From: Chiloscyllium plagiosum
Taxonomy: Eukaryota
Length of the DNA stretch: 57,013 bases
NCBI RefSeq assembly: GCF_004010195.1
Contig: NC_057755.1
Span: 4,808,155-4,865,167, forward strand
Direction: 5' to 3'
The notes beneath the pieces were generated by a model. It ran no database searches. It was not told the DNA's origin and saw nothing but the letters and a program-made list of their open reading frames with translations. The number at the start of each line of letters is the position of its first letter. Positions within the stretch are counted from its first letter, which is position 1. Both the position numbers and the translations under genes were made by a program. Below, piece by piece: positions 3,935-26,715 of the stretch.

Positions 3935-4004
3935 ATGAGACATTCAGCAACCTCACAGGTAGCACGAATTTACTTCCCAATACTTGCAGCTGTTGGCATT
4001 ATTG
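3935..4004 (+). CDS. GPR139/GPR142-related orphan GPCR gene 1, coding exon 1 (MRHSATSQVARIYFPILAAVGII)
   Basis: ATG, 23 codons plus 1 nt, then G|GTACGT donor. The phase-1 junction fits exon 2 at 8038, and the exon supplies the first half of TM1. Confidence 0.85.
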
Positions 4005-4089
4005 GTACGTCCCTAATTCCAATTATGATTGTGTAACATCTGTTTAACTTCACTCCCTAATTCTTGATTGAAGTTTGAGATACCTTTTA

Positions 4090-4348
4090 TAGCACTAGGA
4101 AGCTGGGTTCAATTCCACCCTCGGGCGACTCTGCGTCTGCGTGGGTGTCCTCCAGGTGCTCCGGTATGCTCTCACGATCTAATGTTGTACAAGTTAGGTG
4201 AATTGATGATGCTAAATTGACCATAGTGTTCAGGGATGTGTGCCTTAGTCAGCGGTAAATGTCGGGTAGGGGTATGGGTCGGTTTCCCTTCGGAGGGTCA
4301 GCGTGGACTTGTTGGACGAATGGACTGCCTCCACACTGTGGGGAGTCA
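4090..4348 (+). mobile_element. HE1-like V-SINE in the gene 1 intron
   Basis: B-box-like 'gggttcaattcc', V-domain 'tctgcgtgggtgtcctccaggtgctccgg..gctaaattg' and a CR1-like tail. Absent from the paralogous copies at 44.0 and 46.1 kb. Confidence 0.8.
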
Positions 4349-4624
4349 ACGTTCATAATTTCTTTCCATCCATCTGGTCAAGCACGTGTATTTATAATTT
4401 TTTTTTACAGACGACTTAATTCGAATGCTGAGCAGACTGAGTCAGCATTTATTTCTCAACCCGAGTCACAATTGTGAAGCTGGTGGTGAACTTTCTTCTC
4501 AAACCATTCCACAAAGACTGGCGTAAAAGCACTCACAGAGAGTCATAGAGTAATACAGGGTGGATACAGGCACTTCAGTCCAATTCATCCATGCCTTCCA
4601 GGTTTTCTGAACTGAGCTACTCCT

Positions 4625-5365
4625 GCAGCAGGACTTTTCCGCTTAATTGTCACGTCCCAGGGAGTGTTGCTGAACAAAGAGTCATTGGAGTGCAGGTTCG
4701 TGGCTCCTTGAAAGTAGAGTCACAGATAAATAGGATAGCAACGAAGGCTTTTAATATGCTTTCTTTTATTGGTCAGATTATTGAGTGCGAGTGTTGGGAG
4801 GTCATGTTGCGGCTGTACAGGACATTGGTGAGGCCACTTTTGGAATATTGCGTGCAATTATGGTCTTCTTTCTATCAGAAGGATGTTGTGAAACTTGAAA
4901 GGGTTTACAAGGATGTTGCCAGGGTCGGAGAATTTGAGATATAGGGAGGGGTTGAATAGGCTGGGGCTGTTTTTCCTGAGTTGGAGGCTGCGGGTGACCT
5001 CATAGAGGTTTATAAAATCATGAGGGTCATGGATAGGGTAAATATACGAGGTATTTTCCCTGGGGTTGTTGAGTCTAGAACTAGATGGCATTGGTTTAGG
5101 GTAAGAGGGGAAAGATATAAAAGAGACCTCAGGGGCAAGGTTTTCATGAAAATGGAGGTGCGTGTGTGGAATGGGCTGACAGAGGAAGTGGAGGAGGCTA
5201 GTACAATTCTAACGTTTGAAAGGCATCTGAATGGTTATATGAATAGGAAAGGTTTGGAGGGAATTGGGCCAAGTGCTGGTAGGTGGGACTAGATTAGGTT
5301 GGGATATCTGGTCGGCATGCTCGACTTGGATTTAAGGGTCTGTTTCAGTGCTGTACATCCTCTGA
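4625..5365 (+). mobile_element. CR1/HER1-type LINE 3' fragment
   Basis: RT C-terminal motifs LYRTLVRPLLEYCVQLWS, GDLIEVYKIM and VRVWNGL, followed by a CR1 3' UTR. Confidence 0.9.
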
Positions 5366-6305
5366 ACCTCTTTCAAGTCCAACACATGCTCCCTCAGACA
5401 CCGGGCCCAAGCTTAATGAACATATCGTGAGTGAGTTGTGAAATGTACACTAATGAGTAAGGGATGTTGATGAGTAAATGGAACTTTAACTTTTATTACA
5501 CATGTGAGTAGACAATTGTAGTTTTGCATGTGGAATATATCTAAGGGAACAGATGAAGAGAGCTCACAATATGCTATGTTTCAAACAAGCAACTGCAGTT
5601 GTTGATGCAGAGCCAGCTGGATTAGGACACTCTTGATCATGCTGTGAGAATATGGTTTAACGTCTGAGATCCATCATCAACAGGTATACTTTGGTGTGTA
5701 TTTCCAGATGCTTATAATTATAAATTTTCAATTAATTATAAAGTTTGACTATGTATGCATACACCTAAAAAACATCCAATAAGCATTCAAGAGATTCCAA
5801 GAATATCCTCTGGACATGACAGTTTCAGAGAGTAATGGAGAGCCTGCATTCTGTTGCAGGAGGATTGAATGACAAGTGTGGAAGTCAACAGTACTCGTAT
5901 GTGTTTAAGTACAGCACGCATTGTGAAGTAACCAAGTGGTATGGGCTTCGGGAAACATCATGAGATTATAGAACACTGAGGGCCTTCCATAAAGGTTGTC
6001 GATCACTGACCATACAGCCGTGTTAGTAAGTCAACTGGGTGCATCGTTAAGTAATTATTAATATGTTCGACCTGCAATTACTAAAGGAGAGACAAAATAA
6101 ATATGTAATTTTTTTATTCCTTTGTTCATTGAAGAAGTTCTTGAACTCCAGAGGTCTCTTCTTGCCAATGCAACATCAAAAAAGCTCTTTGATACTGGAA
6201 GTGGACTCTGGATATTGAGTGATTTATTTAGTCATTTCGCCCTGACACCACAGCTCAGTTCACGTCGAGAAACCTAACCATTACAGGTAAAAGATACTTT
6301 AACTC

Positions 6306-6926
6306 TGTTATGGACTAGGCCAGACCACTCAAAACATTCTTAAGCAGTCAGCCCAGACAATAACTTTGCACGTAGTTTCCGTAAGTGTACAGTGAAACTT
6401 ACCCAGTTTAAGTTAGTGAAGTTGACTACCAGATGTAAAACAGACAAAACAGTTATTCACAAAATTACACAATGAAACACGAAGAACAGAATAAAGAACA
6501 CGACAGAAATTTGTCTATCCAAGCTAGACTTTATCTGTTGTTCCAAACAGTCACAATAAGCAAACCCACTTTAAAATGCAGAACTAAAAAAAAGGTTAGA
6601 TGATTGCAGGTTGAAGTCAGAAAAGAGAGTTTCCACACAGCTCATTGTTGAACCCCTGACCAGATCTGGACTGAACTAAATTGCTCAGCTAGAGAGTTGA
6701 CCACTCCTTTTTTATTCTACTGCTCACTTCAAAAACATGGCCAGTTTGGCCTGAAGTCTCATCGGTTTACATACAAACAAAAGGCCTCTCAAACTCCTTT
6801 TCATCTCTGTACCAAACCAGTCTGATCGGAGCCCGGCCTGGTTTATTACCCCTCCGAAAAAAGTCAAGCACAGTGTCTCCTTGAGCTAAGGAACAGCTTT
6901 TAGGGGGAACAAACAGCTTTGTAACA
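6306..6926 (-). mobile_element. Solo Gypsy LTR in the gene 1 intron
   Basis: TGTTA...TAACA inverted termini; the reverse complement aligns with 1065-1736. Confidence 0.85.
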
Positions 6927-7014
6927 ATACTAATTTATACATTCAGAATGAAGTTTGAAATCTGACTATTCCTTATCTTCATTCCTGTGTGTCATGTAAC
7001 CATCACTCACTGAC

Positions 7015-7380
7015 GAGCATTTGTTACCCATGCCTAATTGCCCCTTGCGAATATGGAGGTAAGCTGAATTTTTGGTCTGCTGTAGTGCCCCTCCTGTGGT
7101 TTAAACTACAACAATTTGAGGGAGGAAATTCCAGAATTTTGACCCAGTGACAGTGAAGGAAAGGTGTTGTGTTACCAAGTCAGGATGGGGAATTGCGTGG
7201 ATGGGAACGTGCAGTGGGTGGTGGCATTCCTATGTATTTGTGACGTTTGTCCTTTTAAGTGCAAGTATTTAAAGGCGTGTTAAGTGCTGTCTACGAAGCT
7301 TTGGTATAATTCTGCAGGACACACTGGTCTTGGAGAGGTTGGATGTATTTTTCTGAATGTGATGCCAATGAAGCAGGCTG
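7015..7380 (-). mobile_element. Decayed LINE 3' end (same family as 2110-2455)
   Basis: Reverse-complement similarity to 2110-2455 and 30690-30900. Confidence 0.55.
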
Positions 7381-8037
7381 CAATCACAACTTCCAGTTAT
7401 AGTATTACTGTTCTGACAATGTATTGCATTTACAAACTTACATAATGCTTCTCAGCTGCTCCTGCGTTTCCTCATTTTACTCCAGCCTCCCTGATCGACG
7501 GCTCCTTCAGTTTTGTGACCAGCACAAGTAAGAAACCATGACTTTCTTCAGTCATAGGCCAGTCCAATAATCTAAACCTCATAATCAACTGTGTCAATTG
7601 CCCTTCACAAAGTGTATAATGTCGTGGATGCTCATGTGCTATGTTTCTAATTGGGTTTATTGATATAAAATAACTTCTCTCTATTGGTATTTTGATTTAA
7701 TTTTGTCCATTACCAGTTTGGTAAGCGTGAAAAATCTGTTAAACGTTTTGTTGAATCTGCCAACATAGCATGCTTGCATTAGAATATATCATGCCATGCA
7801 GTCATTTTACCCTCAATTAGTTATTTACTTATTCTGTGTGTCTATTTTTGTCAAAGCAAATCATTATTTTATTCTGTGCTTGCTTGCATCAATCATTACA
7901 TTGCAAGGTATCACCATCTGTGGTGCAACTGAGTTAAGAGATTAATATGAGGCAATTGTTATTATTTAGCACATGTTCAGCCGATGTTTTTGGTATGACT
8001 TGCGTCATAAAGAGGTATATCTTTATTTTTCATACAG

Positions 8038-8987
8038 TTAACTCCGTGGGAATTGTGATCCTGAATCGAGGCAATTGTGGACTCTCCAAATGCATCACTC
8101 GCTATTTGTTGGCAATGTCTACAGCAGACTTACTACTTGTCATTCTTAACGTCTTACTTGACCGAATTAACATTCTTTATTTCCCAGTTAATTTCTTATT
8201 CATCACTCCTGTGTGCTCTTTGAGAGTCGGTCTGTACTTTGCAGCCCTGGACTGTTCAGTTTGGTTCACGGTTGCTTTCACATTTGATCGGTTTGTAGCA
8301 ATTTGTTGTCAGACGCTAAGAACAAGATATTGTCATCAGAGAACTGCATTTGTGGCTATAATAACTGTGAGTGCAGTCAGCTGTTTGCGGTCAATTACAT
8401 GGTATTTTGCATTTACACCTTTATTTGTTATTGACAATGTGCCATGGTTTTGTATTGCAATACCAGATTATTATACATCATTGTTTTGGAAAATGTTTGT
8501 GTGGATTGACACGATAATTACACCATTGCTTCCAATTGTATTGATTTTGGCATTCAATTCTCTGACTGTCAGGCATATTATAACAGCCAACCGCATCCGC
8601 TGTCGCCTGCAGAACCAGGGAAATGGGCAGAATAATACTGATCCACAGTTGGTAAACCGGAGAAAATCCATCATCTTGCTCTTTGCATTGTCTGCTAATT
8701 TTATATTGTTGTGGATGACGCATGTCGTACGCTCTTTCAACTGGCAAGAAGTAAACTATAATTATGAAGATAAAACTTTTAATGATCCAATATTTGTTTT
8801 TCAAGAAATTGGATTCATGCTACGGCTTCTGAATTCCTGCACTAACACCTGCATTTATGCTCTAACACAAACTAAATTCAGAGAGGAATTAATCAATGGA
8901 GTAAAATATCCATTTGCTCTAATTGTCAAAATATGCAAATCATCCAACAGGTCTGACCTCTCTTTGAAAATGCATTTACAATCATAA
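8038..8987 (+). CDS. GPR139/GPR142-related orphan class A GPCR gene 1, coding exon 2 (spliced product 339 aa)
   Basis: Acceptor 'ctttatttttcatacag|'. Open frame with the remaining TM segments: LLAMSTADLL, PVC, FTFDRFVAICC, DNVPWFC, TPLLP, RRKSIILLF..FILLW, NSCTNTCIY and KFREEL helix 8. The ORF-track start at 7947 is intronic read-through. Confidence 0.93.
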
Positions 8988-9609
8988 AACAGAATCCCCA
9001 ATTTGAAACTGATTGTGGAATTTCCCTTGATGCATCAGATTTCCATGCCCTAGTAATTGGAAAGAAGCCTCTCAGCCACTCAAATGGGAAATAGAGTGTT
9101 CTGCATAAGAATTAACAAGTTGAAATTAGAATAATATTTCAACGAGATAGAGTATCTGTAAAGGACGGTGCGGGTTAAAAGGCTGAGTCTTTGTTTTTGC
9201 GTTCCATTTTTCCTATTTCTAATTTCTTGCACCAATGCAATTCTTCATGAATAAGTTTATGTTCTTGTGCTGAAAGGACAGTGGAAGCCTTATGTGAATG
9301 TGTTCCACGACGAACTACCAGGGCAACTAAATGCAAAGATTAAACTGACAATCTTCCAAAATGCTTTCATCAGGGATTTAATTTAACTGACATTAATAGC
9401 ACCTGGGACCATTACATTCGATATTCAAAACAGTTTGGCATAATTCACGTTCAGTCTCAAGGCTTCTTTTCTAAAACCAACTTGTCCGTTTATTGCACAC
9501 CATTACCCTAACATCTGTCTTTTAATACCTCATTGTCGGCACTCCAGAACCTTCTTCATTGGGTGTGCCTTGCATTTCTTTTAGCTGTTATACAGTTGCC
9601 AGTTGTGGT

Positions 9610-10200
9610 TTGTGGTGCAATGATAACAATCTCTCTCTCAACGTTGTACAACAAACCAACTGGCCATTGACCTCAGGAAGAAAAGAAGAGGATAAGCCCC
9701 TACCTACATCAAGGGATTTGAAGTGGAGATGTTCGAAGGCATTACGTTCCAATGACTGTCCATAACCTACATGCTTCACAGATCGATGCTATCGGCAAGA
9801 AGGCACAACAACGCCTCATCATCCACAGGCAGCTTCAGAAATTCAGCAGGTACACAAAGACCGCCTCCAACCTTTGCAGATACACGATCGAACATATTTC
9901 ATCAAGCAGCCTGGGTAACAGCCTGGTCCAGCCACCGCTCTGTGCAGGACAATAAAAATAAAAAACTACAGAAAGTTGTTTGCACAAACCGGGACCATCA
10001 CGGAAGCCAGAGACTCCATTTTAAAACTTCTCGTTGTTCAGGAAAGGCTGCCAACATCATCAAATGCCCCTCCCACCCCAGTAATGCTCTCGTTCAGTCT
10101 CTTCCATCAGGGAGATGATGCATAAGCCCTTGAACACTTGCAGCAACAATTTCAAGGAGATTTTCTTCTTTCCCCCCGTTGTTAAGTTGATGATTGCACT
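9610..10200 (+). mobile_element. Rex1/Babar-like LINE 3' fragment, decayed
   Basis: Peptide pieces WCNDNNLSLNV, KKAQQRL, TIEHI, KKLQKVV and AANIIKCPSHP..LPSGR. Confidence 0.75.
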
Positions 10201-10819
10201 TCTCCGACGTCATATAATGTTGATCTTGCCATGTTTGATTTTGCTTTGCTCATCGCTTATGCAGTCCCAACCTTGTAGGCCTCAGTTCGTCAAAGCAACC
10301 TGTGAGCTACATGTCCTTCTTTGCTCTGATCTGCCTCTACTGTTCATAAAACAAAACTTTTCACTGTATGTGACTACAATAAAACAAATCAAATCAGTAT
10401 CTATTTCCAATTTCAACTCTTTATTGTTACTTTGTCCAATTTTTTTCCAGGCATATTGAAGTAATGCACACAGCGGCCTGCATCTAAGATGAAAAGCTCT
10501 CTGAACATTGAAACTGAGTACTGAGATTCACTGTTTAATCCTGACCACTGACACTAATTATACTGAAAGTTCTTGGCCATTGAGGCACATTGTTAAGAGA
10601 ATCCTGACCCAGCCAGTGTGTGTTGAAATAAAAGTGCACAAAGTGTAAGAGCTCTTTGCTCAGAGGGTAAACACAGCGACCTACTCCTTACCGACTATGA
10701 AATTTACCACTTAAAGATTGAAATGGAACGGAATGTCAAGTGAGTGTGTTCAGTCATTCCTCTCTAACAGGGGATGCGTGACATTTGGTGGCTGAGTGGA
10801 ACATTGTGTAGAAGGTCGA

Positions 10820-11095
10820 CAAAACCATAAGGTGTTCATCGATAACAACAGGAGGAGGCTGTTCCACCCTCAAGCCGACTCCACCGTTCAAAATGATCAT
10901 GCTCAGTCAGCATTCCTCACGTCCACTTTCCTGACTTTTCCGCACGACTCTTCACTCTCTGAATGATGAAGAGTCTGTCTCTTTTCGCCTTAAATATTGA
11001 AGATGTACGCCCCAAAACTCTCTGCGAAAAGGAGATCCACAGAATCGCAACCCTCAGAGGGAAATAATAACTCCTTGTCTGACTCTTATAATGAC
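10820..11095 (-). mobile_element. CR1 LINE 3' fragment
   Basis: Minus-strand 'FPLRVAILWISFSQRV..IFKAKRDR' is the CR1 C-terminal FxQRVVxLWNxLP region. Confidence 0.65.
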
Positions 11096-11379
11096 ACCGC
11101 TTAATCAAATTGTCTGCATGAACGCCGCTCCAATAGCACTCAAGAAGCTTGATGCCCTGCAGGACAAAGCAGCCCCCACTTGTCACACATACACACACAC
11201 AGATGCACAAACACATAGACGCACGTATCGACGTGACAATCAATAGTATTGCCTTCAAAACAAGAGGGATTTATGGGGAGAGGAGTTTTGACCCCATTTC
11301 AACGTTTCAAATGCCAAAGCAACAGAGACACCATTACACTGAGATGCACACATCCCTGGATGGTGTCAGCTTCCAGAGT

Positions 11380-12360
11380 TTTTTTGGAGCTGGACCCATC
11401 CAGACAAGTGGGGAATAATCCATCACACTTCAGTCTTGTGCCTCCTAGGGAATGGATAGATTTTAGCGCGTCAGGGGGCGAGTTACTTGCTGCAGTATCC
11501 TTCGACTCTGATCTATTCTTGCAACTACTGCTTATGTGGTGAGTCCAATTGAGTTTCTGCTCAATGTAAATCCCAAGGATGTTGACAGTGAGGGATTCTC
11601 TGATGGTAATGTAGTTGAATGTCAAGGGGCAGTGGTAAGACTGTAAGAAGGCATGCCAGGAGCAGCACGACACTGAGGTATCACCCTGCGGAAGCTACCA
11701 AGTAGGACTACTTGCTTGCCAAACGGCACGAAAAGCAAGTGATAGACAGAGCTAAGCAATCCCACAACCAACGGATCAGGTGTAAGCTATGAAGCCTTTC
11801 CACATCCAGTGGGAGTGGTGGTGAACAATTAAGCAACTCACTGGAGAATGATGTTTCACAAATATCCACATCTTCAACGATGGGGGAGCCCAGAACATCA
11901 GAGCAAAAGGTACGGCTGATGCATTCGCAACAGTCTTCAGTCAGAAGCGCCAAGTGGGTGATCCATCTCCAGCTCCTCCAGTGGTCCCCAGCTTCGCAGA
12001 TACCCGTCTCCAGTCAAGTCGATAGACTCCACTGGATACTGCAAAGGCAATGGGCCCTAATAACATTCCAGCAATGGTACTGAAAACATGTGCTCCAGAA
12101 CTTGCTGATCACCAGTCAACACCGGCGTCTACCCAACAATGTAGAAACCTGCAACACAAAAATAGGATAGATCCAACCCGGCTAATTATGACCCAATCAG
12201 TCTACTCTCGATCATCAAGAAAGTGATAGGAGGAGTCATTAACAGTGTTATCAAGCAGCACCTACTCACTAATAACCTGCTCAGTGACGCCCAGTTTGGG
12301 TTTCGCCAGGGTCACTCAGCGCCTGACCTCTTTATAGTCTTGGTTTAGATATGGACAACA
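11380..12360. mobile_element. CR1/L2-superfamily LINE RT fragments in opposite orientations (about 11380-11645 minus, 11650-12360 plus)
   Basis: Plus strand: NYDPISLLSII..IKQHLLTNNLLSDAQFGFRQGHSAPDL (12184-12330). Minus strand: VNILGIYIEQKLNWTHHI. Confidence 0.75.
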
Positions 12361-14360
12361 TAACTTTCCAACTTCTCTACTCAGTACCCTGACTGATGAA
12401 GGCCAGTGTGCCAAAAGCCTTTTTCAATGCCCTGTCTGCCTGTGACTCCACTTTCAGAGAACCATACACCTAAACTCCAAGTTCCCCATGTCTCACTTTA
12501 CACATTAAGGTCTTACCACTCATCATGAAACTCTACCTTGATTCGATTTTCCAAAATGCAAGACCTCACACTTACTTGTACAAAGCTTAATTTGCTATTT
12601 CTCGAACACTTGCCCAGATGATCAAGGTCCTGTTACAATTTCTGATAACCTTCCTCACTGTCCATGATACCACCTACTTTAGTGCCATCTGCAAAATTAC
12701 CAATCATGCTTGTAACTTTTTATCCAAATCTTTGATATAGATAATAACAGTAATGGGCCCTGCAACGACCTCTGAGGCACTCCACTAGTCAGAGACCTCC
12801 AGGACAACAAGCATCCTTGCACTAATACTCCCTGCTTCCTGCCATCAATCCCAATTGCATATGCAATTTTCCAGCTCCACCTTCCAAGCGTCCTAACCTC
12901 CCAGAGCAGCCGATCATGAGGAACCTTATCAAAAGCATTACTGAGATCCATTCGACTACTTCTACTACCTTTCCCTCGTCATACTTCCTGGTCATTTCGT
13001 CAAAGAACTCTAACACATTTGTGAGGCATGATCTTGCACGCGCAACATTATTCCTAATCAAACCTCCGCGTTCCAAATGCATGCAGATCTTACTTCTCTG
13101 AATTTTCTCAGCTAAATTACCCGCCACAAATTTTAGGTTTACTCATCTACAGTTCCCAGGTATTTCTTTCCAGCTTTTGTTTGAATAATGGCACAATACT
13201 CACTGCCTTCCAGATTTCCAGGATCTCAACCATGGCAAAAAATGATGTAAAAATTGCAGCTAGGACCCTGGCAATTTCCTCTCACGCCTCTTGCGGTGTT
13301 CCTGGATATATGTGGTCAGGACTAGGAGATTTTTCCACCTTCATGCATTCTAGTACGTCAAACACCACCTTTGCTATGATATGAACGGTCCTCAAGACAT
13401 GACGACTAACTTCCCCAAGTTCCCAAGTTTTTATGTCTTTTCTCCACAACAAACACAGAGGAGAAGTATTCATTGAGGACATCACCCACCTCCTGAAGTT
13501 ATGCACATACATGTCTACATTGGTCCTTGAGGTGCACTATTCTCTCTCTCGTTATTGTTTTACCGTTAATATGCTGAAATTACCTCTTTGGATTTACACT
13601 AACCTTCTCAGACGAGTCTACCTCATGCCTCCCTTTTCCCTCCTGATTTCTTTCTTCAGTAAACTCCTGTGTTTCTAATATACCTCCAAGGATCCCCTTG
13701 ATACCAGCTGCTTGTACCTGAGCCATACCTCCACTTCTTCTGGTCAAACCCTCAATATCTCTGGTCACCCAGGGTTCCCTATCCCTGGCAGTCTTGTCTC
13801 TCCCTGTCAGTCTTGCCATTCAAACTCACAGGAGCATGTTGACCTTAAACTGTAGCTATTTCACTTTTAAAGCCCTCCAAATTGCCAGAGGTCACTATGC
13901 CTGCAAACAAATTACTCCAGACCACACCTGCAATCTCCTGTCTAATTCAGTCAAAATACGCCTTGCCCCAGTTTAGAACTTGGACCTGTGGACCACCTTT
14001 GTCCCTTTCTATAAATATTTTAGAATTAATAATCTATGGTCATTGGTCCCAAAGTGCTCCCAACTGTCACCTGTCTCACCTGTCCACCCCTATTTCTCAA
14101 ACTTTGGTCAGGTTTTGCCCCTTTGTCAAGGAGGATTCTCTACATACTGCTTGGGGAAACTTTCCTGAGCGCACTTAACAAATTCACATCTGAACCTTAA
14201 CGCTCTGATAATCCCAGTCCATGATAGGCAAATTAAAATCTCCTACTATGACAACCCAATTGCTCCTGCAAGTCTCTCCAATCACTCTGCATACTTGTAC
14301 CTCTAATTCCTGTTGACTACTTGGGGGTCTGTAGAACAACTTCAATGACGTCACCACCCT
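12361..14360 (-). mobile_element. Decayed CR1 LINE ORF2 (endonuclease end, tether, RT)
   Basis: DLSNAFDKVPH, SGVPQRSLQGP, RSCLTN..FFD, KSPSPDHIYP and EPWVT. Confidence 0.9.
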
Positions 14361-14774
14361 CTTCTTATTTCTTCGGGAGATTTACTCTGTATCAAATCCG
14401 TACTGTCACTGTCCTGGGAATGTTTGATGGGGGACAGCGTAGTGAGAGCTTTACTCTGGCACAGACCCACAATGTCCCTTAGGAAGGGAATTCCTGGATT
14501 CTGACGCATTAACACTGAAGAAACGCTGATGTATTTCCAAGTGACGATGTGACAGCGAGACAGAGCGATAAGGTGTACAATATGTCAGGGCTTCAGATCA
14601 TTGGCCATGGCTATCATGGTCAGATAGCCACATTGGTGCCTGTGAGTCAACCCACTTTTGAGAAATTTACTCTGTGCCCTCAATGTGCCAGCTTCGTGCA
14701 GGCAGCTGGTCATCTGTTTTTTGCAGATTCCTCTCAAACACATATAGACACAGAGAAAGATTCTTAAAGGCTTT

Positions 14775-15240
14775 ATATAGAAGCGCAGGAAATAGGAGCA
14801 GAAGTAGGTCATTCGGCCCTGCGAGCCTGGTCTGCCATTCAACGCACTCTGCCTGATCACCCAATTCAATCCCCTGTTCCTGTTCTCTCCGCCATTTCTT
14901 TTGAACCCTTTAGCCCTAAGAACAACATTGACTTCCATCTCGAAAACATTCAATGTTGTGGCTGTAACTGCTTCCTGTAGCAGATTGATTCGTAGGTTCC
15001 CCACTCTTTGGGTGAAAACATTTCTCCTCATCTCAGTATGAACTTACCCACCCCGCATCCCGACGCCCTGGTTCTGGGATCCCTGGTCAGCGGAAATATT
15101 CTTATTGAGTTTACCACAACAGAACTTTCCAGGGTTCGAAGAGGTTCCACCTCATTATTCTCAACTCCAGTGAACACAATCCTAACAGATCCAATCTCTC
15201 TCCATGCATCAGTGCTGCCATCCCAGGAATCAGTCTTGGA
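14775..15240 (-). mobile_element. CR1 LINE 3' fragment
   Basis: RRNVFTQRVGNLRINL on the minus strand plus a CR1 3' UTR. Confidence 0.75.
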
Positions 15241-15254
15241 AACTAGACTAGCTT

Positions 15255-15560: not shown

Positions 15561-16479
15561 TCACCCACAAGCATCCCCTCAGCGACTGGATGCGTGGTGG
15601 GCTCTCAGATTTTGTTGCACCTCTCCCTTTCCCAATCTAACGCTGTTCAGACAATAACCTGGTTTGCTGTTCACGCCCTTTAAAGTCGACTGGAACAACC
15701 ACGTCTCACATCACCCAATCCCAACCTCGTGAAATATCCGCAGTTATTGGCAAAATCCTACCACGGATAACTCCTCCCTCCACAATCATGTACAATCGAA
15801 ATAAAAATTTGGAAGTATAGTTTCAGAATGCTTTTGTTCAAGGTTTTGTGTGGCTGCAAGTTTGTGGAGATGGGCTGAGTAAAAACATTGTCGTGTTCCA
15901 TCAGGCATGATCATATGGAATGGCGGATCAGCTTTGATGAGTTGAGTTTGCAATCCATTGCCTATGTCCCTGTCTTAAACTTAAACCATCTACCTCTAAT
16001 TCTGATACTGTGCTGCCTGGACCAGGAGTCACCAGCCAAAAGGAATCATCTGATTCACATCCACCTACGAAACGTTTCGTAAAGTTCACTGGAACTGCCT
16101 CACATTCTTTCAAATCGTAGAAAGTGCACTGTCTGTTTCCTCAAACCACGTGCACCCTCCATATTAAATTGCTTGTCAATTTCTGCTCAACCTTATTTCT
16201 GCTGGAGCTGTACCTTCATTATTTTGTGGACCTTCATGTTGTGTTTGATGATATCTTTAACATTTTATTGTTTGTTTCGAACAAACGGGTGACTTGTCTG
16301 GGATTAATTAAACAAGAATGAACCAGCAACTAAAAATAAACACGGATGCTGGACAGACAAAACAGACTGGAGAAACTCAGCAGATATAGCCGCAATTGTC
16401 GAGAGGAAGCAAAAATAGCCTTTTCAGTTTCAGTGACCATTCTTCAGAATTAATTATAGAGAGCAAAAGCGGGATTGAT

Positions 16480-16860
16480 TGTGTGTGTGTGTGCGTGTGT
16501 GTGTTGGGGGGGGGGGGGGGGCAGCTGGGAATATTCCTGAAAATGAAACTGCGTGTGTGTGTGTTTCTATTCTCCCTCCTTAATTCTGTCTATGTCTGTC
16601 TGAACCTGTCTCTATCTGTATATCTCTGTTTTCTCATATTGTATCCTCTGTCATTCTTTCCCTGTCAATCTCTATCTCCATCTTTTCTCTCATTCTTTCT
16701 ATCTCTCTCACTTGCGGTCTTAAATTCCATCTGTCTATCGCTCTGGATCCCTCATTCTTCTCTCTTAATCTCTCTATCCCTCTCTCATTGACGCTCTCTC
16801 TCTCTGTCTCTGACTCTGTCTCCCCACTTCTCTCTACTTTTCTTCCCTACCCTCTCTCCT
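16480..16860. repeat. (TG)n, poly-G and CT-rich low-complexity tract
   Basis: Directly visible. Confidence 0.85.
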
Positions 16861-17077
16861 TTTATTCCTATGCGTGAAATGATGATACCACAATTCTATG
16901 GTATTGCCACAAAACCTCTTCAAGAAAATGTTTCTTTTTTGTATTCAGTTACTGATCACACAGAAGTGTTGTCATAATCTGTTTTTCATTGAGTTGAAAA
17001 TGTTGTAACGCCATATCCCCAGGGGGGTGATCTCACAGGCTATAATTGAAAGGCTTGGGAAATTAAAGTCTTCAGTT

Positions 17078-17083
17078 TATAAT
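17078..17083 (+). promoter_or_regulatory. Putative TATA box of gene 2
   Basis: TATAAT ~57 bp upstream of ATG 17135. Confidence 0.4.
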
Positions 17084-17134
17084 GCAGGGAGAGACTATCT
17101 GAATCTCAGAGAAAACTAGCACCTCACACTAAAA

Positions 17135-17201
17135 ATGTCCCGTCCAATTGGTGATGTGCTGAAATTATATTACATGATATTTGCTGTCATTGGAATTCCT
17201 G
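17135..17201 (+). CDS. GPR139/GPR142-related GPCR gene 2, coding exon 1 (MSRPIGDVLKLYYMIFAVIGIP)
   Basis: aaaATG, 22 codons plus 1 nt, consensus donor G|GTAAGT. The phase matches the acceptor before 18279, giving GIP-ANLLAIVILS, similar to GPR139 GLP-ANILTVIILS. Confidence 0.9.
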
Positions 17202-18278
17202 GTAAGTGACAATAGCCAGCGATATTGTGTGATTTTGTTGCTCTCTGCTTTTACTGTATGACTCATAATACTTCGTGCTAAATTAATTGTCACACTTATA
17301 AATTCACGTGAAGAGTAAAATGATTTGGTTAAGTTAATCGTTTTGAATTGTACCTGACGCTTTACCCGATATCCATTGGTGTTCATACATCAGTGTCGCT
17401 GTAGTGGCTATTAGGTCAGACATGTTCAGCTGCATGTGTATCATTAATTAATCTAATTTTGTATGAATACTGTCTATTTAATTCCAGAGGCAATACGTTT
17501 GTCTTTTTATTGCCACTTTTCCTTTTTATTCTTCTTGTTGTTGCCTAAGTTTCGCCTTGTCTGAGTTTTCCTGCATGCTTATGTTCTACACAGGGTATAA
17601 TGAGTAAATGATTTGCCCTTAAATGCTCTCATATCGTTTTGCATTATAATCATATGCAGTCCCCTTCAGAAACGTTCGTCCCCTCTTCTTATTCACCTTC
17701 ATACATGTTATCTTTTATTTTAATTGTTGTCTTGGTGCAAGTTCCAGAACAATGTTTCTTCGCACAATCCATCACTGTCACTAGCCTTCTATTCCTTGAC
17801 TCATTCACTTCCCATTCAGAGGATCGGTAGACAAGTTTCCCATTGTCTTATCAGTGAACAGATTATCTATCTCATCCTCCAACATGCCTGCCTCATCCAT
17901 CAACGCCATCAGCAATACATATTGACTTACCTTCTGTCCCTCTGACCATTCTGTCACAACACAATGAAATTAAGGTCTGAACTCCTTCCTGCAGAGGTCC
18001 AAAAGGAAAAGGATCTATACCTTTAGCTCCCTCGATTACACTTAACAGACTCCTTCTCCTTTCAATAGCAACAACTATTTACGTGAATATTTTCAGATTT
18101 GATCACTGCAATCATTTCTAAAAAGTCCCTTGTGATTTTGAGGAAGGTCAAATACAGTTTGACTAGTAGCTTTTCTGATTTCCTCCCTTCAGTTCGCAAG
18201 ATAAACTTACAACCTTATTGTACATGGAGGATGCATGTTCAGTCATTTTCACATTATCTTCTATTCCTTTCCTTTCAG

Positions 18279-18796
18279 CTAATTTACTGGCGATTGTCAT
18301 CCTGTCTCGCGGAAAGTGTGGCCTCTCTACCTGTACCACTCGCTACCTGGTGGCCATGGCAATAGCAGATTTATCAGTCATTATTTTAATCAACTTTTTG
18401 TGGCACATCAGTTATCATTATTTCCCAGGGACATTGCTGGATATTGCTCCTGTGTGCAGCCTCAAAACTGTACTCGCCTCTGCAACGACAGACTGCTCTG
18501 TCTGGTTCACAGTTGTTTTCTCCTTTGATCGATTTGTGGCCATTTGTTGCCAGAAGCTGAAAATGAAATATTGCACTGAGAAAACTGCAGCCATTGTTCT
18601 AACAGTAACCTGCGTCCTGCTCTGTTTAAGAAACATCCCATACTACTTTACATTTGAGCCATTGATGATAATTGACAATGTACCGTGGCTCTGCACTGTG
18701 AAACCAAGTTATTATACTGATCCTGGATGGGTGGGGTTTGATTGGTTTGATCGGATTTTAACCCCTTTACTCCCTTTCACTTCAATTCTGTTGATT
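18279..18796 (+). CDS. GPR139/GPR142-related GPCR gene 2, coding exon 2 (TM1-TM5; 3' end lost in assembly gap)
   Basis: Acceptor 'ttcctttcctttcag|'. LVAMAIADL, FSFDRFVAICC, DNVPWLC and TPLLP are present, and the frame is open up to the Ns. Confidence 0.9.
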
Positions 18797-19296
18797 NNNN
18801 NNNNNNNNNNNNNNNNNNNNNNNNNNNNNNNNNNNNNNNNNNNNNNNNNNNNNNNNNNNNNNNNNNNNNNNNNNNNNNNNNNNNNNNNNNNNNNNNNNNN
18901 NNNNNNNNNNNNNNNNNNNNNNNNNNNNNNNNNNNNNNNNNNNNNNNNNNNNNNNNNNNNNNNNNNNNNNNNNNNNNNNNNNNNNNNNNNNNNNNNNNNN
19001 NNNNNNNNNNNNNNNNNNNNNNNNNNNNNNNNNNNNNNNNNNNNNNNNNNNNNNNNNNNNNNNNNNNNNNNNNNNNNNNNNNNNNNNNNNNNNNNNNNNN
19101 NNNNNNNNNNNNNNNNNNNNNNNNNNNNNNNNNNNNNNNNNNNNNNNNNNNNNNNNNNNNNNNNNNNNNNNNNNNNNNNNNNNNNNNNNNNNNNNNNNNN
19201 NNNNNNNNNNNNNNNNNNNNNNNNNNNNNNNNNNNNNNNNNNNNNNNNNNNNNNNNNNNNNNNNNNNNNNNNNNNNNNNNNNNNNNNNNNNNNNNN
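18797..19296. other. Assembly gap (500 N)
   Basis: Run of N. Confidence 1.
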
Positions 19297-19421
19297 CTGT
19301 GGGAGGAAACCTGCACAGACACGGGGAGAACGTGCAAACTTTACACAGTCAGTCGCCTGAGGCGGGAATTGAACCCGGGTCTCTGGCGCTGTGAGGCAGC
19401 AGTGCTAACCACTGTGCCGCC
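19297..19421 (-). mobile_element. HE1-like SINE 5' part, young copy
   Basis: The reverse complement 'ggcggcacagtggttagcactgctgcctcacagcgccagagacccgggttcaattcccgcc' has clean Pol III A/B-box-like motifs. Confidence 0.85.
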
Positions 19422-20190
19422 TACGGTATGTATGTATGTTCTATATAAAGAACAATTTGTTATTAGTTGTACACGAAATATTCTTGATTGTTCAAAACTT
19501 GTGGATTTAAAGTACTTTTATCTTGCAATGATTGTCTAAAGTTATGTGAATTATGAAAACACATTTGTTTTATATTCTAAAAAAAAAATGCCTTTAGCAT
19601 TCATTTCAGACCCAGCGGTGGGTTTCCGAAGATCTGTCTTTAATGGATGCTCAACGATTTTCCAACCAAATAATGGCTGGGCGAACTCGTGCCCAATCAG
19701 GGCAATGCAGGGCAGGATGAATACTACAGTCAGCCAAACCATGTTTGTGGAGTGGAGATGCTCGAGCAATCCTTGCAGGAGGAAAGACGTTTGAGCGTCG
19801 GTATAGACTGAGCAGATTGCTGGGAAAAACTTAAGGATTGGTTGGAGACAATTGTTATAGCGGATCTGGCAGAGCTGCCAACGGAAAGGAAAGATCTCAC
19901 AGAGTGCTGGATGTGTGATATATTGGTGATATCTCATTGCATGGGAAAATGACTGACAAATATCACTTTCAACAAAGGATTCATTGAAATACATTTCTTT
20001 GTGTGCAAAAATGCTCGACGTCGTTAAATGGAAAGGAACCAATGCAGGTCTAGGGAAGAGGCTGTAAATGAACTTAAAATCATTTATTAGCAATGTAATC
20101 CTGAAGAGTTGTATGACATGCGATGTTTCGTTTTATTAACGGCAAATGTGATCAAAGCTCAATTGAAAAGATGAAAATTGAACCCATCCA

Positions 20191-20738
20191 TGTGACGATG
20201 ATGTCATTTTGACAAGGTTACTTTCTCCTTGGGAGAGGTCGTCGAGGCAGATCTGCAAAAATGTCTGGAAATATCGAATTTAAGAACGACGGGGGAGTGG
20301 CTAATTCTGCCAGTTCAGGTTTTTTTTCTCCCAGTTTGATTTCTTTGCAGCAGAGAAAAGGAGTGTTACAGTGCAGAAACGTTCCATGCTCCTGCAGGTG
20401 ATTCTTGACTGGCTTCTCTCTCTGAAATCTCTCCTGCCTGCGTGAACCTGCGTTTGAATTTACCTTTTGCCCAAGGGATGTGTTGATGTGATGTTATGGG
20501 AATTGAAGCAGTTCCTCAGTTAAGTTGCCAATATTTAAATTTTTCTAAATTCCATTTTCTTGAGTTCGTGTTGAATTGTGCTGTGCAAACAAATGCTGTT
20601 TTACTTAAAGCGGAGTGGTTGGTCCAGCTGCATCACATCCGAAATATCCACTTCACAACTGCCCTTAAAATGAGAAAACGTAAGGATCGAGGCTACATTC
20701 ATAAAATATTTTGAGGCGATCTGGTCTCATCCATAACA
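20191..20738 (+). mobile_element. Diverged solo LTR related to the Gypsy LTRs
   Basis: Starts TGTGAC and ends 'ccataaca'. Shares 'ggggagtgg' and 'aaaatattttgagg..tctgg' motifs with the other LTRs. Confidence 0.6.
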
Positions 20739-20956
20739 TATAGGAGTGGATACTTCTAATAGTTAACACCCTGACATGTTCACGATACCGTCAATTTCCT
20801 TCCAGGCCCATGCAATGTCTATTCGCAGTGTCGTCACAATTTTAGCAATGGTCACCGCACCTCATAATTTGGCCAAGCATGACTCCAGCATTCACAAACT
20901 GGAAGCACTGTGACACAGCCTGACGCCCGTTGAGATGTACCGATTGATTGCAGAAA

Positions 20957-21828
20957 TTATGTAACCAATGATTTCAAAGCGTTCTTGATTTTCCCTCTGA
21001 ATTTGGACTGAGTCGCTACATAAATGAATGTATTTGTGCAGCAACTTAAATTCCGCAGCATGATTCCAAAATAAGCAGATGTGGTTTCAGAATCAGTGGA
21101 ATCGGTTCCGCCAATGATATCACGAAAGAAGTTTATGATAAATGTCAGCCACAGAAGTATAAAGCTACCGGATATGGTAAAAAGTAAAATGACAGACTTC
21201 CTCCTGCTTTCCACCTCTGCATCACGCTGTATCTCTCCATTAGTGCGGGCTTTCAGCTCCTTACGGACTCGGCTGGATGCTAAAATGCATCTTACAGTCA
21301 AAGTGTTGATTAACAGAATTAGAGCGAATGGGAGCAGTGGCATTAAAGCTTTAGAAAAGCATTCATAACCCACCCAACCAGGATGGGTATAATAACTCGG
21401 TTTCACATAACAAAACCATGGTACATTGTCAACTATATACCCAGGTTCATGAATAAAGTAGACAGGGACACTTTTCAAGCAAAGCAGAATGCAGGTTGTT
21501 GAAAGCACCACAGCTGCAGTTTTCTCTGTGCAAAATCGTGTTCTCAATTTATGGCAACAAACAGCTACATAACGATCAAAAGAGAATGTGACAGTGAACC
21601 AGACAGAACAGTCCATGCTTGCATCACACAGTGCACCATGGGCACTACATGCAGGAGTGATGTCCAAGAAAAACATTGGGGCTTCATAATAATAAATAAC
21701 CTCTCTCAATATGACTTCAAATATGACGACCAGGAGATCTGCCCATGCCATTGCCACGAGGTAGCGTGTGGTGCACTTTGAAACACCACAATGTCCGCGG
21801 GAGAGAATCGCAATGGCCAGCAAATTAA
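20957..21828 (-). CDS. GPR139/GPR142-related GPCR gene 3, coding exon 2 (spliced product 312 aa)
   Basis: Acceptor 'tttccttttctttctcacacag|'. NLLAIAILSRGHCG, LVAMAWADLL, FSFDRYVAVCC, DNVPWFC, RRKSVILLF and SCCTNTFIY in an open frame. Confidence 0.93.
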
Positions 21829-22488
21829 CTGTGTGAGAAAGAAAAGGAAATAAATGCTGGAATTTACTCAGCAAACAGCTTCTCTGTTTGCCGCCGTCAG
21901 TATGGCACGATGAGGACAGAATATGGGAACTGGCGGGCAATCAAATGGTTTCTGTTATTGTTGAATATGGAAATTCTAATTCTAAATCTAAAATAATTTC
22001 AGACTCACCAGGCAATCAGATAGTCGGGTTCTGTTAATTCAGTAATTGCACGACCCTTCCCTAAATCAGAGCCTGATTGGGAGTGGGGAATATATAGCCT
22101 TGTAAATGAGTTAGGCTTTGAATCTTTCACAGGAGGCTTTGTTCTGGATGGTCCCGATAAAATTGGTTCCCATTTCAAACTGAACTTCTTGACTAACTGC
22201 TCACAGAATAAAGCTTTATTCCAGAGATCAGGATGTGTTTGTATGTTTCTCACAAGATTTATTCATGTCGCTTCATCGTCTATTATGTATCAATGTCTCC
22301 ATGAGGTCACAAAGTTGGGGAAGCAATAGACCATGTGGACAATTGATCATGGTGAATCTAACTACCGCACATTCCGTTCAACACAGTGCGCCTTTTATAC
22401 ATTTATAATGCAGAATGGTTCTAACTCAGCCTTAAAAGAATCGTGAATCCATGTGCTTTCAGAAAGTTTTCACAAAGAGAGTTAAATA

Positions 22489-22974
22489 AAGTTTGTGAGA
22501 AGATTTGTAGCTCGGGTGCCTGTTGCTGTGGTTCTGTTCGCCGAGCTGGAAGTTTTTGTTGCAAACGTTTCGTCCCCTGTCTAGTTTCGTCCCCTGTCTA
22601 GGTGACATCCTCAGTGCTTGGGAGCCTCCTGTAAAGCGCTTCTGTGGGGTTTCCTTCGGTGTTTATAGTGGCCTGTCCCTGCCGCTTCCGGTTGTCCGTT
22701 CCAGCTGTCCGCTGCAGTGGCCGTTATATTGGGTCCAGGTCGATGTGTTTGTTGATGGAGTTTGTGGATGAGTGCCATGCTTCTAGGAATTCCCTGGCTG
22801 TTCTTTGCTTCATTTGCCCTATAATGGTAGTGTTGTCCCAGTCAAATTCATGTTGCTTGTCATCTGCGTGTGTGGCGACTAGGGATAGCTGGTCATGTCG
22901 TTTTGTGGCTAGTTGGTGTTCATGGATGCGGATCGTTGGCTGTCTTCCTGTTTGTCCGATATAGTGTTTTGTGC
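22489..22974 (-). mobile_element. Penelope-like (Poseidon-type) element, GIY-YIG 3' fragment, with 13-bp TSD
   Basis: HYIGQTGRQ..RIHEHQLA..REFLEAWHS..INKHIDLDPI. TSD agagagttaaata at 22476-22488 and 22975-22987. Confidence 0.9.
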
Positions 22975-23269
22975 AGAGAGTTAAATAGTCACATGAACGA
23001 AGGAGGACAATAGCTATTCTCAACTCTGACTTACATGTGTTGCCTCTTATATCATTACAGAAACCCTGAGCTCTTGAACCTCTCAAAAGATGAAATTCCT
23101 CTTCCAGTTACGAGCTTCCTTCACTTCAAAAGTGAGAATTTGCATTCCTTGTTAATTCAGACTCAGAGACCAGACTGGAATGCCAACCAAGTAATCTCAA
23201 AAGCCCCTCTGCCGCCATGGTGAAGCGAATATTTCCATTTGCAATAAAACAATCAATCAACCCTGCTTT

Positions 23270-23555
23270 CTCGCACACACCCAAACACATACTCATGCAA
23301 AGAGACGCATACAGAGACACACACATGCACCCACACGCTCACACACACATTCACAAACACACGCACACCCACTCTCTCAAGTGCTTGCACACATGCACAC
23401 AGAGACACACATACACATGAACACACACGATTTCTCACAAGCACACACTCACCCCCACACACGTATTCTCTCTCACACACACGCTCACATGCATACACAC
23501 GCTCAAACAAGCAAACATGCGAGCGCGCACACACACACAGAGCACACACGTACAC
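23270..23555. repeat. Degenerate (CA)n tract
   Basis: Directly visible. Confidence 0.9.
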
Positions 23556-24899
23556 AATCTGAACTCTGATTCGAGAGTTGGTTGCGTCTACATGACTGCT
23601 GTATTCTATCCTTCGGTTTCTCTCTCTGTTTGGTTATCTGCAATTCACACTTTCGGTGATTGGAACAAAGTAATGATTTGGTTGCTGCAAAAACTGTTGA
23701 ATTCATGTGCGTCCAGATCTCAGAGAAGCGCAGCATTGATGCAAACTGATGCTCAATTTCTTAGGCTCAAATGTGAAGCTATGGCGAATGTCCACCATTT
23801 CACAATAACGGTGACACAGGGAAGGTGGAAAATGCTGGTGTCCCAACAATAGAAATAAGGATTTTTGAGACATTGCAGGAGACAGACCAAACCTGTATTT
23901 ATGAATGTGTAGCAAGAAAAATATCCTGCTGATGACCACCTTTCCTACTGCTAGTAAAATTTTATGCTTCATGATATAGTATTGGTATTGACATAAGGAT
24001 CATTCATGGTCATAAAGAATGCTGGTGTAAGTCCAAAGCACCAAATAACCTTCTCCTGCTCTTTTTTGGCTTTAAGTTCAAGTTTCAACCAATACTGACG
24101 AAGTTAAAATATTCATAAAGCTAAATCAATCTTCCAAATGATAATTACCTTGCTGAAAAACCAAAAGTAAGCGAAGTCACACATTATTTATTCCTTTGTT
24201 GTTGCTCCTATTTGATAATTTGGCAACATGATTTCCACTCCCGTCACGTTTTAGACTTGGTCCTTCTCCTGAAATAATCACCAGCCATAATATTGTCCTC
24301 TGATGTCTTCCATGCATAAGTTTCAAATTCTGATCACTCCCAAGATCCTGCCGCAGGATACTTGCTGTGGACCAGGCTGCTCCACCCTAAGTTGTACTTA
24401 ACGTACAATGAAGTATAGAACTGCAGGTGCTGGAAATAGGACAGAGAGACAGAAATTGCTGGAGAAACTCAGCGTGCCTGCCACCATGTGTTCAGGAAAA
24501 ACAAAAAGCAAAACAGATCAGGAAACTACTCACTCGAGTGTGGAAGAACGGCGCTGAATATTCACCCTATCCATGCCAGACAATTCTTTTCTATTTCCTT
24601 CAGGTGTCTCTTCAGCCTCCCCCCCCCCCCCCCTCCCCCCGATACTCTCGGGCAAATGAACAAAATCGTCCAATCTTTCCTCAGGACGAATACACACTAC
24701 TCTAGGAAACACTCCAGTAAACATCTTTGGTGCTCAGTCCAATCCCTCCTGTGGTGTCTAGAATTGCACACAATGCTCTAAATATGACTACAATAAAGTT
24801 GTATTCAGCTGCAACACGGCTTGCTAACCTTTATACTCAATACCCGGACGGATGAAGCCACACATGATGGATGGTTGACAGTGAACACTTACTTCTGAA

Positions 24900-25860
24900 T
24901 GAGTGCTCTTGGATAGATGATCCGAGGAGTGCCAGATCGAGTTTAACTTAGCTGAAAGTGAGACGTTGCATTTTGGTAAGACAAATCAAGTCAAGGTATC
25001 TGAGGAAATTTGCAGAACAGAGTCGCTGGGGGTGCAGTTTCACAGTTTCTTGAAAGTGAAGTCGCAGGTCGACAGATTAATAAGGAAGGCATTTGGTCCA
25101 CTTGCCTGAATTGGTCAGTGCATTGAATAGAGGATTTGGGAAGACATGTACCCGAGAAGCCGGACATTGGTTAGACCAGTTGTGGAATAGTGTGTTCAGT
25201 TCTGATCTCCCTGCTGCAGGAAGGATGTTGTGAAACTTCAAATGGTTCAGAAACGATTTGCAAGCATGTTTACAGGGTTGGAGTGTTTAAGCTGCAGGGA
25301 GAGGCAGAAGGGGCTGTGGCTATTTTCCCTGAAGTGTCAGAGGTTAGATGTTTATAAAATAATGGGGGGCGTGGGTATGACAATTGCCAAAGTACTTTTT
25401 TCCCATCGTCGGGAAGTCCAAAACTCGAGAACATCGGTTTAAAGTGAGAGGGGAGGGATATGAAAATGATCTTAAGGGCAACTTTTGCATGGAGAGGGTG
25501 CTGTCGGTGTGGAATGAGCTGCCAGATGAAGTCTTGGAGGCTGCTACGAAATACAATATCTAAAGGACATCAGGATGGACAGATGAACAGGAAGGTTAAA
25601 ATAAACTAGGAGAAAGTGAGGATTGCAGATTCTAGAGATCCGAGTTGACCGTGTGGTGCTGGGAAATCACAACATCCGAAGAGCAAGTGAATCGACATTT
25701 CTTTAAGAGCCCTTCTTCAGGATGAACAGTAAGGGTTCAGAAGGCCAAATGCTGGTAAATGGGACAAGGTGAATTTTGGATATCTGGTCGGCATGGACAA
25801 GTTGGACTGTGTGGTCTCTGTCCAATGTGTATATCTTTGTGCCGCTATGATTCTATGAAT
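24900..25860 (+). mobile_element. Decayed CR1 LINE 3' fragment interrupted by a short Penelope-derived insert (25598-25720)
   Basis: CR1 motifs KLQMVQKRF and DVYKIM. The insert matches 37301-37405 and is flanked by an imperfect repeat gatgaacaggaaggtt / gatgaacagtaagggtt. Confidence 0.8.
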
Positions 25861-26648
25861 ACTTTTTTTGACGAAGACTTCACTTAACTTACTGGTTGAC
25901 TAGTCTAATTCAATTTCTGCGTTGCATTTCCACATCATTAGGGCGCAAAACAAGCCTGGGCATTTTTTCCACAAATTGTAGAATTAGCCCATAGTGGCAA
26001 TTGTGGGTAAGCTTGAGTCAAGCCACGGCTGATGTTGCAAACATTATAGCCGTCTGTTTTTGGTTATTCCATGCACGGGAATAAAGTGACGGGTTGTTGG
26101 CTTTTATAGGTCAATGAAAGCTGTGAATATACGTGAAAAATCTATTGTTTCCTTTGACTAATAGCAGACACACACACAAAAAACAGCGCGATGGAATATA
26201 AAGGTTGATCAAAGTATAGGCTATTTCCTAATCGAAAGATGTCAATTAATACCAGAGAGCACACTAATCTTAGTACAGCTGCACACAGACAGATACTCAA
26301 AATAATAAAACTCGACTGCAGAAAGCTATTCAATTCCCAAAAGTGAAATTTACCAAGCTCAAATCTGCAAAATAAATGTTTTCAATAATGTCTTCAGGAG
26401 AGTTCCTGAGAGATGAGCTGTGTCCATTACAACACTACACAACATGACACGTTAGGCAGGAAATCGATGCCATAAGATAGCAGTGACTGAAAGCAACCAA
26501 CGAAATGGAATAGAATTGCAAAGACAAATTAACTCGTTTAGTCTAAAAACTAAATGCCTGGTATACAATCTGCACAGTAGGAACCAGCTTGAAATATTAT
26601 CAGGATCAGTGTAAAATTCGCAAATCTTTGATGATTATTCTCACTTAC

Positions 26649-26715
26649 CAAGCAGACCAACTACAGCAAGTATCATGTTGTACACTTTGTTGAAATCATG
26701 CATACGAAGAGCCAT
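26649..26715 (-). CDS. GPR139/GPR142-related GPCR gene 3, coding exon 1 (MALRMHDFNKVYNMILAVVGLL)
   Basis: gaaATGg, 22 codons plus 1 nt, donor G|GTAAGT. Same length and phase as gene 2 exon 1, and in frame with the exon starting at 21828. Confidence 0.88.

Follow-up and report, generated by a model that had tools for sequence, protein, structure and literature searches.

A very large family of GPR139-related receptors in sharks and rays, possibly a chemosensory repertoire

Introduction

GPR139 is a G-protein-coupled receptor (GPCR) activated by tryptophan and phenylalanine, for which it needs residues F109, H187, W241 and N271 (accessible parts of PMC5430874). In the group that it forms with GPR142, Rinne et al. 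(2019) distinguished the fish and coelacanth subtypes GPR210A and GPR210B; the available text of that paper does not mention sharks (PMC6504862). Cartilaginous fishes have the smallest vertebrate repertoire of known olfactory receptors, with a mean of 43.8 genes over the four olfactory families (PMC10869828, portions available), and one genome paper describes a relative paucity of GPCRs in them (PMC8455134, portions available). Here we analyze a 57,013-nucleotide stretch of the shark Chiloscyllium plagiosum genome (contig NC_057755.1, positions 4,808,155 to 4,865,167 of the forward strand), called the window below, which carries three related receptor genes, A, B and C. The original prediction, made from the letters of this stretch, took them for members of an expanded, possibly sensory, receptor family.

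The three genes belong to a very large family of intact and broken copies that appears to behave as a diversifying repertoire for recognizing ligands. The single most likely role is a sensory one, at somewhat under even odds; an immune or barrier use comes next and seems unlikely.

Results

Size and copy state of the family

Exact genome-wide matches to a 27-nt pattern for the family signature FDR[FY]VA[IV]CC numbered 1,232, against 0 for the control, which puts the count above 1,200 loci and far from a few copies. The recall of this pattern is low (8 of 37 loci, and 6 of the 15 intact ones, in two contiguous regions). A motif of the young subfamily, or young clade, had 553 matches in the genome, and a motif in transmembrane helix 7 (TM7) designed to leave that subfamily out had 595, with 2 for its control; the two sets are largely disjoint. 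A protein search of the same genome gave 8,272 first-look candidates, and the 125 that were scored all had E < 1e-89. For the young clade, capture-recapture in one 44-Mb interval led to an estimate of ~970 copies. Roughly, the family may total 1,500-3,000 loci, of which 35-55% would have an intact exon 2; this corresponds to many hundreds of genes.

Copies lie on contig C8 of this assembly (G000), on the small contigs C37, C39 and C43-C50, and towards the ends of many large contigs. The 457 kb around the window hold 24 loci, 8 of them intact, 15 broken or partial, and gene B cut by an assembly gap. The tandem cluster that had been proposed is therefore present as a cluster, but it is not head-to-tail, with A and B on the plus strand and C on the minus strand. 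In 200 kb of C44, a region picked around known family matches, 7 of 13 loci were intact, and among 20 evenly spaced motif matches on C8, nine passed as intact by our filter, eight were broken and three were without an acceptor call.

Young-clade copies have no exon 1 within 6 kb of exon 2. In one of ten extended loci it was located ~22 kb upstream, and a young-clade exon-1 motif with its donor was matched 545 times in the genome; long introns account for the missing nearby exon 1, and we rejected the idea that these copies are fragments without a first exon. The 20 evenly spaced C8 copies have ~2 kb around exon 2 in common at roughly 80-93% identity, and young-clade copies also share 10-20 kb of same-strand upstream sequence, patchier than that around exon 2. 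A mobile element carrying the receptor was considered and set aside, as the pattern reads as segmental duplication (no search for a transposase or terminal repeats was made). On C8 (G000:C8:0-33.5 Mb), the exon-1 motif, counted only with an intact donor, had 94 matches and the exon-2 motif about 43; this excess may come from first exons that stand alone, from an exon-2 motif that misses more copies, or from errors of scaffolding.

Species range and earlier descriptions

A search of the protein database returned 1,824 matches, and of the best 120, 118 came from 20 shark and ray species and two had no species name. Chimaera, lamprey and bony fish were absent from these 120, and no direct search of those groups was made. 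In the trees described below, subfamilies are common to sharks and rays. These species, the 1,232 motif matches and the mixture of intact and broken copies bear out the expectation of an expanded family in sharks, and they show it to be of the birth-and-death kind.

The name probable or putative GPR139 was attached to 114 of the same 120 matches. A full-text literature search, with most subscription papers outside its reach, found no description of the expansion. The accessible parts of PMC11979771 and its preprint, PMC8455134, PMC10620051, PMC13100897, PMC7677710, PMC6504862, PMC10869828, PMC10116579 and PMC11057056 do not mention it, and no GPR139 entry occurs in the available supplementary files of PMC8455134 (12 of 24 files), PMC7677710 (3) and PMC11057056 (3). 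The genes are already in public annotation under the GPR139 label, yet apparently undescribed as a family.

Selection on the extracellular and intracellular halves

Exon 2 was split by helix landmarks into extracellular and intracellular halves before the ratio of nonsynonymous to synonymous substitution rates (dN/dS, or omega) was counted; all samples consist of intact frames, many picked by similarity to a query. Pairwise dN/dS was 1.00 extracellular versus 0.27 intracellular in the young clade (33 sequences, with two divergent ones excluded), 0.40 versus 0.22 in the gene A clade (14 sequences), 0.46 versus 0.22 in the gene C clade (6 sequences) and 0.35 versus 0.19 in 16 other sequences. 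The extracellular value is thus the higher one in all four groups, and the intracellular halves are under purifying selection.

With purpose-written codon site models, M2a was preferred over M1a in the young clade by twice a log-likelihood difference (2dL) of 547, with 6% of sites at omega 8.5. All 17 sites scored above 0.95 are extracellular, while extracellular sites make up 118 of the 288. Up to 13 different amino acids occur at any one of them, and they are located in extracellular loops (ECL) 1, 2 and 3 and at the tops of TM6 and TM7, whereas deep-pocket positions are nearly fixed. The signal persists on a tree built from the intracellular half, and a model with a hypermutable neutral class leaves omega at 3.85 and 2dL at 50.6. 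Mosaic simulations reached a 2dL of at most 32 in eight runs. Recombination or local hypermutation is therefore insufficient as its source.

Relationship to GPR139, GPR142 and two fish orphans

Among solved structures, the best sequence match of gene A exon 2 is GPR139 (PDB 7vug, 9m42; E 8e-6). This genome has its own GPR139 (L021), a single motif match on C21 with the same intron position as the family; a GPR142 was not located in it. When that GPR139 was searched against 50%-identity representatives and 150 matches were scored by a family profile, proteins of frog, amphioxus and reedfish ranked above GPR139 and GPR142, which led to two conserved genes, X1 and X2. Both appear to be present at roughly one gene per species, X1 in fishes (sharks, chimaera, lungfish and coelacanth among them) and X2 in amphibians, reptiles and fishes; no mammal was among the matches listed for either. 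Like the family, they carry the database name 'probable GPR139'. Both have an orthologue in this genome (X1, L103 at G000:C98156; X2, L102 at G000:C26:36.60 Mb), and they may be the GPR210A/B subtypes of Rinne et al. (2019). Some database entries for X2 are named TMEM183A, which suggests that the annotation was fused with a neighbour.

In a 48-row tree the family formed one clade (support 100/100) with X2 as sister (90/89), followed by X1 (98/96) and amphioxus (89/85), and GPR139 plus GPR142 fell outside this assemblage; a 53-row tree agreed. Each tree held only 12-21 family rows, and stem branches are long. The family and the GPR139-related group shared a chordate branch to the exclusion of invertebrate relatives (100/98 and 100/99). 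The approximately unbiased (AU) test rejected a clade of family and GPR139 (p 5.7e-5); a clade of the family, GPR139 and GPR142 was not rejected (p 0.058), and the best trees place the family elsewhere. A phase-1 intron at the same TM1 codon is common to the family, GPR139, X1 (L103) and X2 (L102). No OR, TAAR, V1R, V2R or T2R occurred among homologue names and only the 7tm_1 profile was returned; the trees were built without these families.

The original prediction held that these genes would not be GPR139 orthologues, and the separate L021, the AU rejection and a tryptophan/phenylalanine pocket that is not kept (see below) all speak against such orthology. Its further claim of kinship to GPR139 and GPR142 holds for the wider group. 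Judged by sequence, the family is a class A GPCR lineage of a wider GPR139-related chordate group, neither GPR139 nor a known chemoreceptor family, with X1 and X2, apparently single-copy orphans, as its probable nearest kin. Around GPR139 itself (G000:C21:58.60-60.22 Mb, with the gene at 58.73 Mb) we saw a weak 7tm_3 match 130 kb off and three family copies within 0.5-1.5 Mb. We presume that the weak match is possibly GPRC5B, a neighbour of GPR139 in mammals.

Key residues and predicted structure

Residues D2.50, D3.49, R3.50, N7.49 and Y7.53 were invariant in 93 of 93 intact sequences; together with P5.50, which is likewise invariant or nearly so, they are kept in genes A and C. The positions of GPR139 F109/H187/W241/N271 read F/D/W/F in gene A, D/S/W/I in gene C and S/D/gap/gap in gene B, so that of these four only W6.48 is retained by genes A and C alike; most of the family has lost R6.51 and P6.50. 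An AlphaFold2 model (pLDDT 84) of P0001, an annotated homologue with 82% identity to gene A, has seven helices, helix 8 and a hairpin in ECL2. Its best Foldseek matches are the peptide receptors NTSR1, CCK1R and galanin, and GPR139 (7vug) stands at rank 17, yet with the highest identity listed, 22%; these scores lie too near one another for a ranking of ligand classes.

Expression

The young subfamily is transcribed and processed to polyadenylated mRNA. Among 13.0 million records of single-cell run X6, 312 reads matched a young-clade locus and were concentrated at its 3' end; 25 reads carried poly(A) at three positions, which follow shortly after AATAAA and ATTAAA signals in DNA that is not A-rich. 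The reads number less than one per copy, and about 2% of the run was read; its tissue is unlabelled and its organism may be a close relative. No intron-spanning join was present in the X6 reads, and two Logan proteins were without the typical exon 1. A second, antisense pile of X6 reads covers the intron end and the start of exon 2 (L012:6039-6464). Run X7 had 0 reads on both stretches and is hence no test, and X8 may hold DNA. Gene A was found in no indexed RNA run.

The receptor genes and other features of the window

The three two-exon genes with seven transmembrane helices were confirmed by translation, tblastn and a scan for short first exons, which found one for each (Table 1). Genes A (339 amino acids) and C (312 amino acids) are intact by six-frame translation and tblastn, and gene B loses TM5 onward in the assembly gap. 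In each, a phase-1 GT..AG intron ends 2 nt before the N1.50 codon, and the part encoded by exon 1 is 22-23 residues, half of TM1 included; that of gene A is matched by the N-terminus of P0001. All three score above the Pfam 7tm_1 cut-off (47-84 bits versus 30.5). The signatures listed in the original prediction recur wherever there is sequence to read: RGxCGxSxC, DR[FY]VAxCC and DNVPWxC are in all three, and RRKS is visible in A and C only, as B is cut before it.

Pairwise identity among A, B and C is 45-63%. The strong divergence noted at the helix tops was confirmed, with 12-14 identical columns of 34-35 from TM2 top to TM3 top and 6 of 36 from TM6 top to TM7 top (A versus C), against 23-28 of 36 from TM1 through intracellular loop 1 to the TM2 base. 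Over TM3-TM5, gene B is near-identical to L035 (G000:C4:22.2 Mb), and it is more different in TM1-TM2; a mosaic or a recent long-range duplicate is possible.

Table 1. Positions of the receptor gene parts and associated features in the window
Feature	Position	Strand	Remarks
Gene A exon 1	3935-4004	+	ATG, very short N-terminus, top of TM1; phase-1 GT donor at 4005
Gene A exon 2	8038-8987	+	TM1 remainder to C-terminus; open to TAA; Pfam 7tm_1 E 3e-15
Gene B exon 1	17135-17201	+	Donor GTAAGT
Gene B exon 2	18279-18796	+	Open from TM1 to TM5, then assembly gap; Pfam 7tm_1 E 2.8e-12
Assembly gap, 500 N	18797-19296	.	No receptor sequence detected beyond gap
Gene C exon 2	20957-21828	-	Open to TAA; Pfam 7tm_1 E 1.2e-23
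Gene C exon 1	26649-26715	-	Donor GTAAGT; second in-frame ATG at 26703
Decayed relic of a family member (TM6-TM7)	33317-33525	-	Stops and frameshift; tblastn E 0.006-0.16

Pseudogene debris had been placed among the three genes; one weak relic exists, and it lies outside the 3935-26715 span. Similar relics occur at G000:C46:4766342 and 4869513. The rest of the window is mostly debris resembling long interspersed nuclear elements (LINEs) and simple repeats, as open reading frames (ORFs) read by eye. At 35630-40000, 53300-56500 and elsewhere we take the frames to be decayed LINE-like ORFs with esterase-like ORF1, endonuclease-like and reverse-transcriptase-like pieces, and two pieces at 22727-23107 and 37286-37942 look by eye presumably GIY-YIG-like. 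Upstream of the first family locus found on C46, ~7 kb of simple-repeat or satellite DNA (G000:C46:4.612-4.630 Mb) has very long open frames.

Beyond the window, all placed matches to major histocompatibility complex (MHC) class I lie on C37, interspersed with family copies (G000:C37:0.45-17 Mb); two family copies at 15.66 and 16.75 Mb have class I matches at 15.64 and 16.73 Mb. A cluster at G000:C13:63.7-65.9 Mb contains about 30 V2R-type terminal exons interleaved with broken copies.

Discussion

That the family is a repertoire of sensors for outside chemical cues is the reading we favour, at a little below even chances. The fuller proposition, an undescribed shark and ray chemoreceptor family of many hundreds of intact genes that arose independently from an orphan GPCR lineage single-copy in bony vertebrates, is more tentative again. 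On this proposal, a conserved signalling half would be kept while the outward-facing half varies, and each copy might recognize different ligands among outside chemical cues, probably peptides or amino-acid derivatives. Signalling would proceed via an ordinary G protein, as the retained DR, D2.50, P5.50, N7.49 and Y7.53 suggest. In the young subfamily, a fixed deep pocket under a varied vestibule is as expected of larger ligands with a common core, and the deep-pocket residues that differ between older subfamilies (those of A and C, for example) would point to a differing ligand class. The receptors could act in scattered sensory cells and need not be confined to the nose.

Several observations weigh against a sensory repertoire, or against its full extent. 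First, the transcripts come from one unlabelled library, and no sensory-tissue expression is among them. On a V2R-type terminal exon control with five close paralogues, X6 gave 11 partial reads, none 95% alike, and because the V2R signal is absent the library is probably not olfactory epithelium. Expression of the family in the nose only is therefore doubtful, and X6 weighs only lightly against it because it gave less than one read per copy, its tissue is unlabelled and its organism may be a close relative. Second, the clades of gene A (16 sequences) and gene C (6) showed no positive selection, with a 2dL of 0, so that the window's own clades are under relaxed rather than positive selection; the site-wise dN/dS analysis proposed with the original prediction supports positive selection in the young clade alone. 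An omega near 4-8 at outer loops is, moreover, equally typical of immune receptors. Third, interspersion with MHC class I on C37 fits immune and chemosensory readings alike. Finally, since many matches lie on unplaced contigs and some exon-1/exon-2 pairs recur at equal spacing, uncollapsed alleles could inflate copy counts up to twofold; the maximum nucleotide identity between any two of 33 sampled young-clade copies is 95.2%.

The rival that survives best, although we consider it unlikely, is an innate-immune or barrier repertoire, with leukocytes or epithelial sentinels sensing microbial or parasite peptides and an arms race shaping the hypervariable rim. The very strong positive selection on the outer rim of the young clade, the polyadenylated transcripts in a V2R-negative library and the class I genes among the C37 copies would all suit such a role, and it would invite comparison, with the same reserve, to the formyl-peptide receptors or MRGPRs at far larger scale. 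However, no immune-cell expression is among the evidence obtained, and the older clades, those of the window included, are without a positive-selection signal. Linkage to the MHC favours neither reading, since odorant receptor clusters in mammals show it too, and known vertebrate immune GPCR families number in tens.

An internal role, in which the receptors read endogenous peptides or form a neuron or endocrine identity code that builds on what GPR139 and GPR142 do in brain and endocrine tissue, seems improbable. Kinship to GPR139, transcripts outside the nose and the likeness of the predicted fold to neurotensin, CCK and galanin receptors could be read that way, but endogenous ligands leave unexplained both a copy number above 1,000, with at least half of the sampled copies broken, and an omega far above 1, and single-copy GPR139, X1 and X2 orthologues persist beside the family. 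Still less probable is a reproductive or self-recognition repertoire, with gametes, reproductive tract or pheromone-sensing cells reading individual-specific peptides, possibly MHC-bound; rapid diversification of the rim and interspersion with MHC class I would accord with it. Least probable, and already weakened, is mostly passive amplification, in which the genes are carried along as large segments of repeat-rich chromosomes duplicate, and few of the copies have a role: 16 of 24 loci near the window are broken, partial or gap-cut, young-clade copies share their 10-20 kb upstream and reads per copy are few, but intracellular omega is 0.19-0.27 in all four groups (intact frames only), positive selection is limited to the extracellular face, D2.50, D3.49, R3.50, N7.49 and Y7.53 are invariant in 93 of 93 intact sequences and subfamilies are common to sharks and rays.

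Under its automatic label of probable GPR139, the family would be missed by surveys of olfactory families. If the sensory reading is correct, a large vertebrate chemoreceptor repertoire would have had an independent origin, its many hundreds of intact members would be comparable in number to the odorant receptors of mammals, and it would overturn the view that cartilaginous fishes, for all their large noses, detect chemicals with about 40 receptors. Should it prove immune, the family would stand out as an innate receptor set of unusual size, in the oldest lineage that has adaptive immunity. The choice between the two readings can be tested at once with tissue and single-cell RNA data that already exist.

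Set beside known systems, the family resembles GPR139 and GPR142 in its TM1 intron, its chordate branch and its database name, but those receptors lack the C3.25 and the ECL2 cysteine that it keeps, have a shorter ECL2 and occur in one copy against more than 1,200. X1 and X2 share the intron position and both cysteines, and differ in having, apparently, about one gene per species, with about 30-36% identity to the family. The formyl-peptide receptors and MRGPRs are also lineage-specific expansions with fast-evolving extracellular loops; they show no sequence kinship in our searches, apart from one automatic 'CCR3-like' label, and the shark family is far larger. With the OR, TAAR, V1R, V2R and T2R families it has in common clusters of intact and broken copies, a short N-terminus and variation on the ligand side, whereas it matches 7tm_1 only, groups with GPR139-like orphans and has an intron in TM1. 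Against the roughly 35 intact-looking V2R-type exons on C13, it is at least ten times as numerous.

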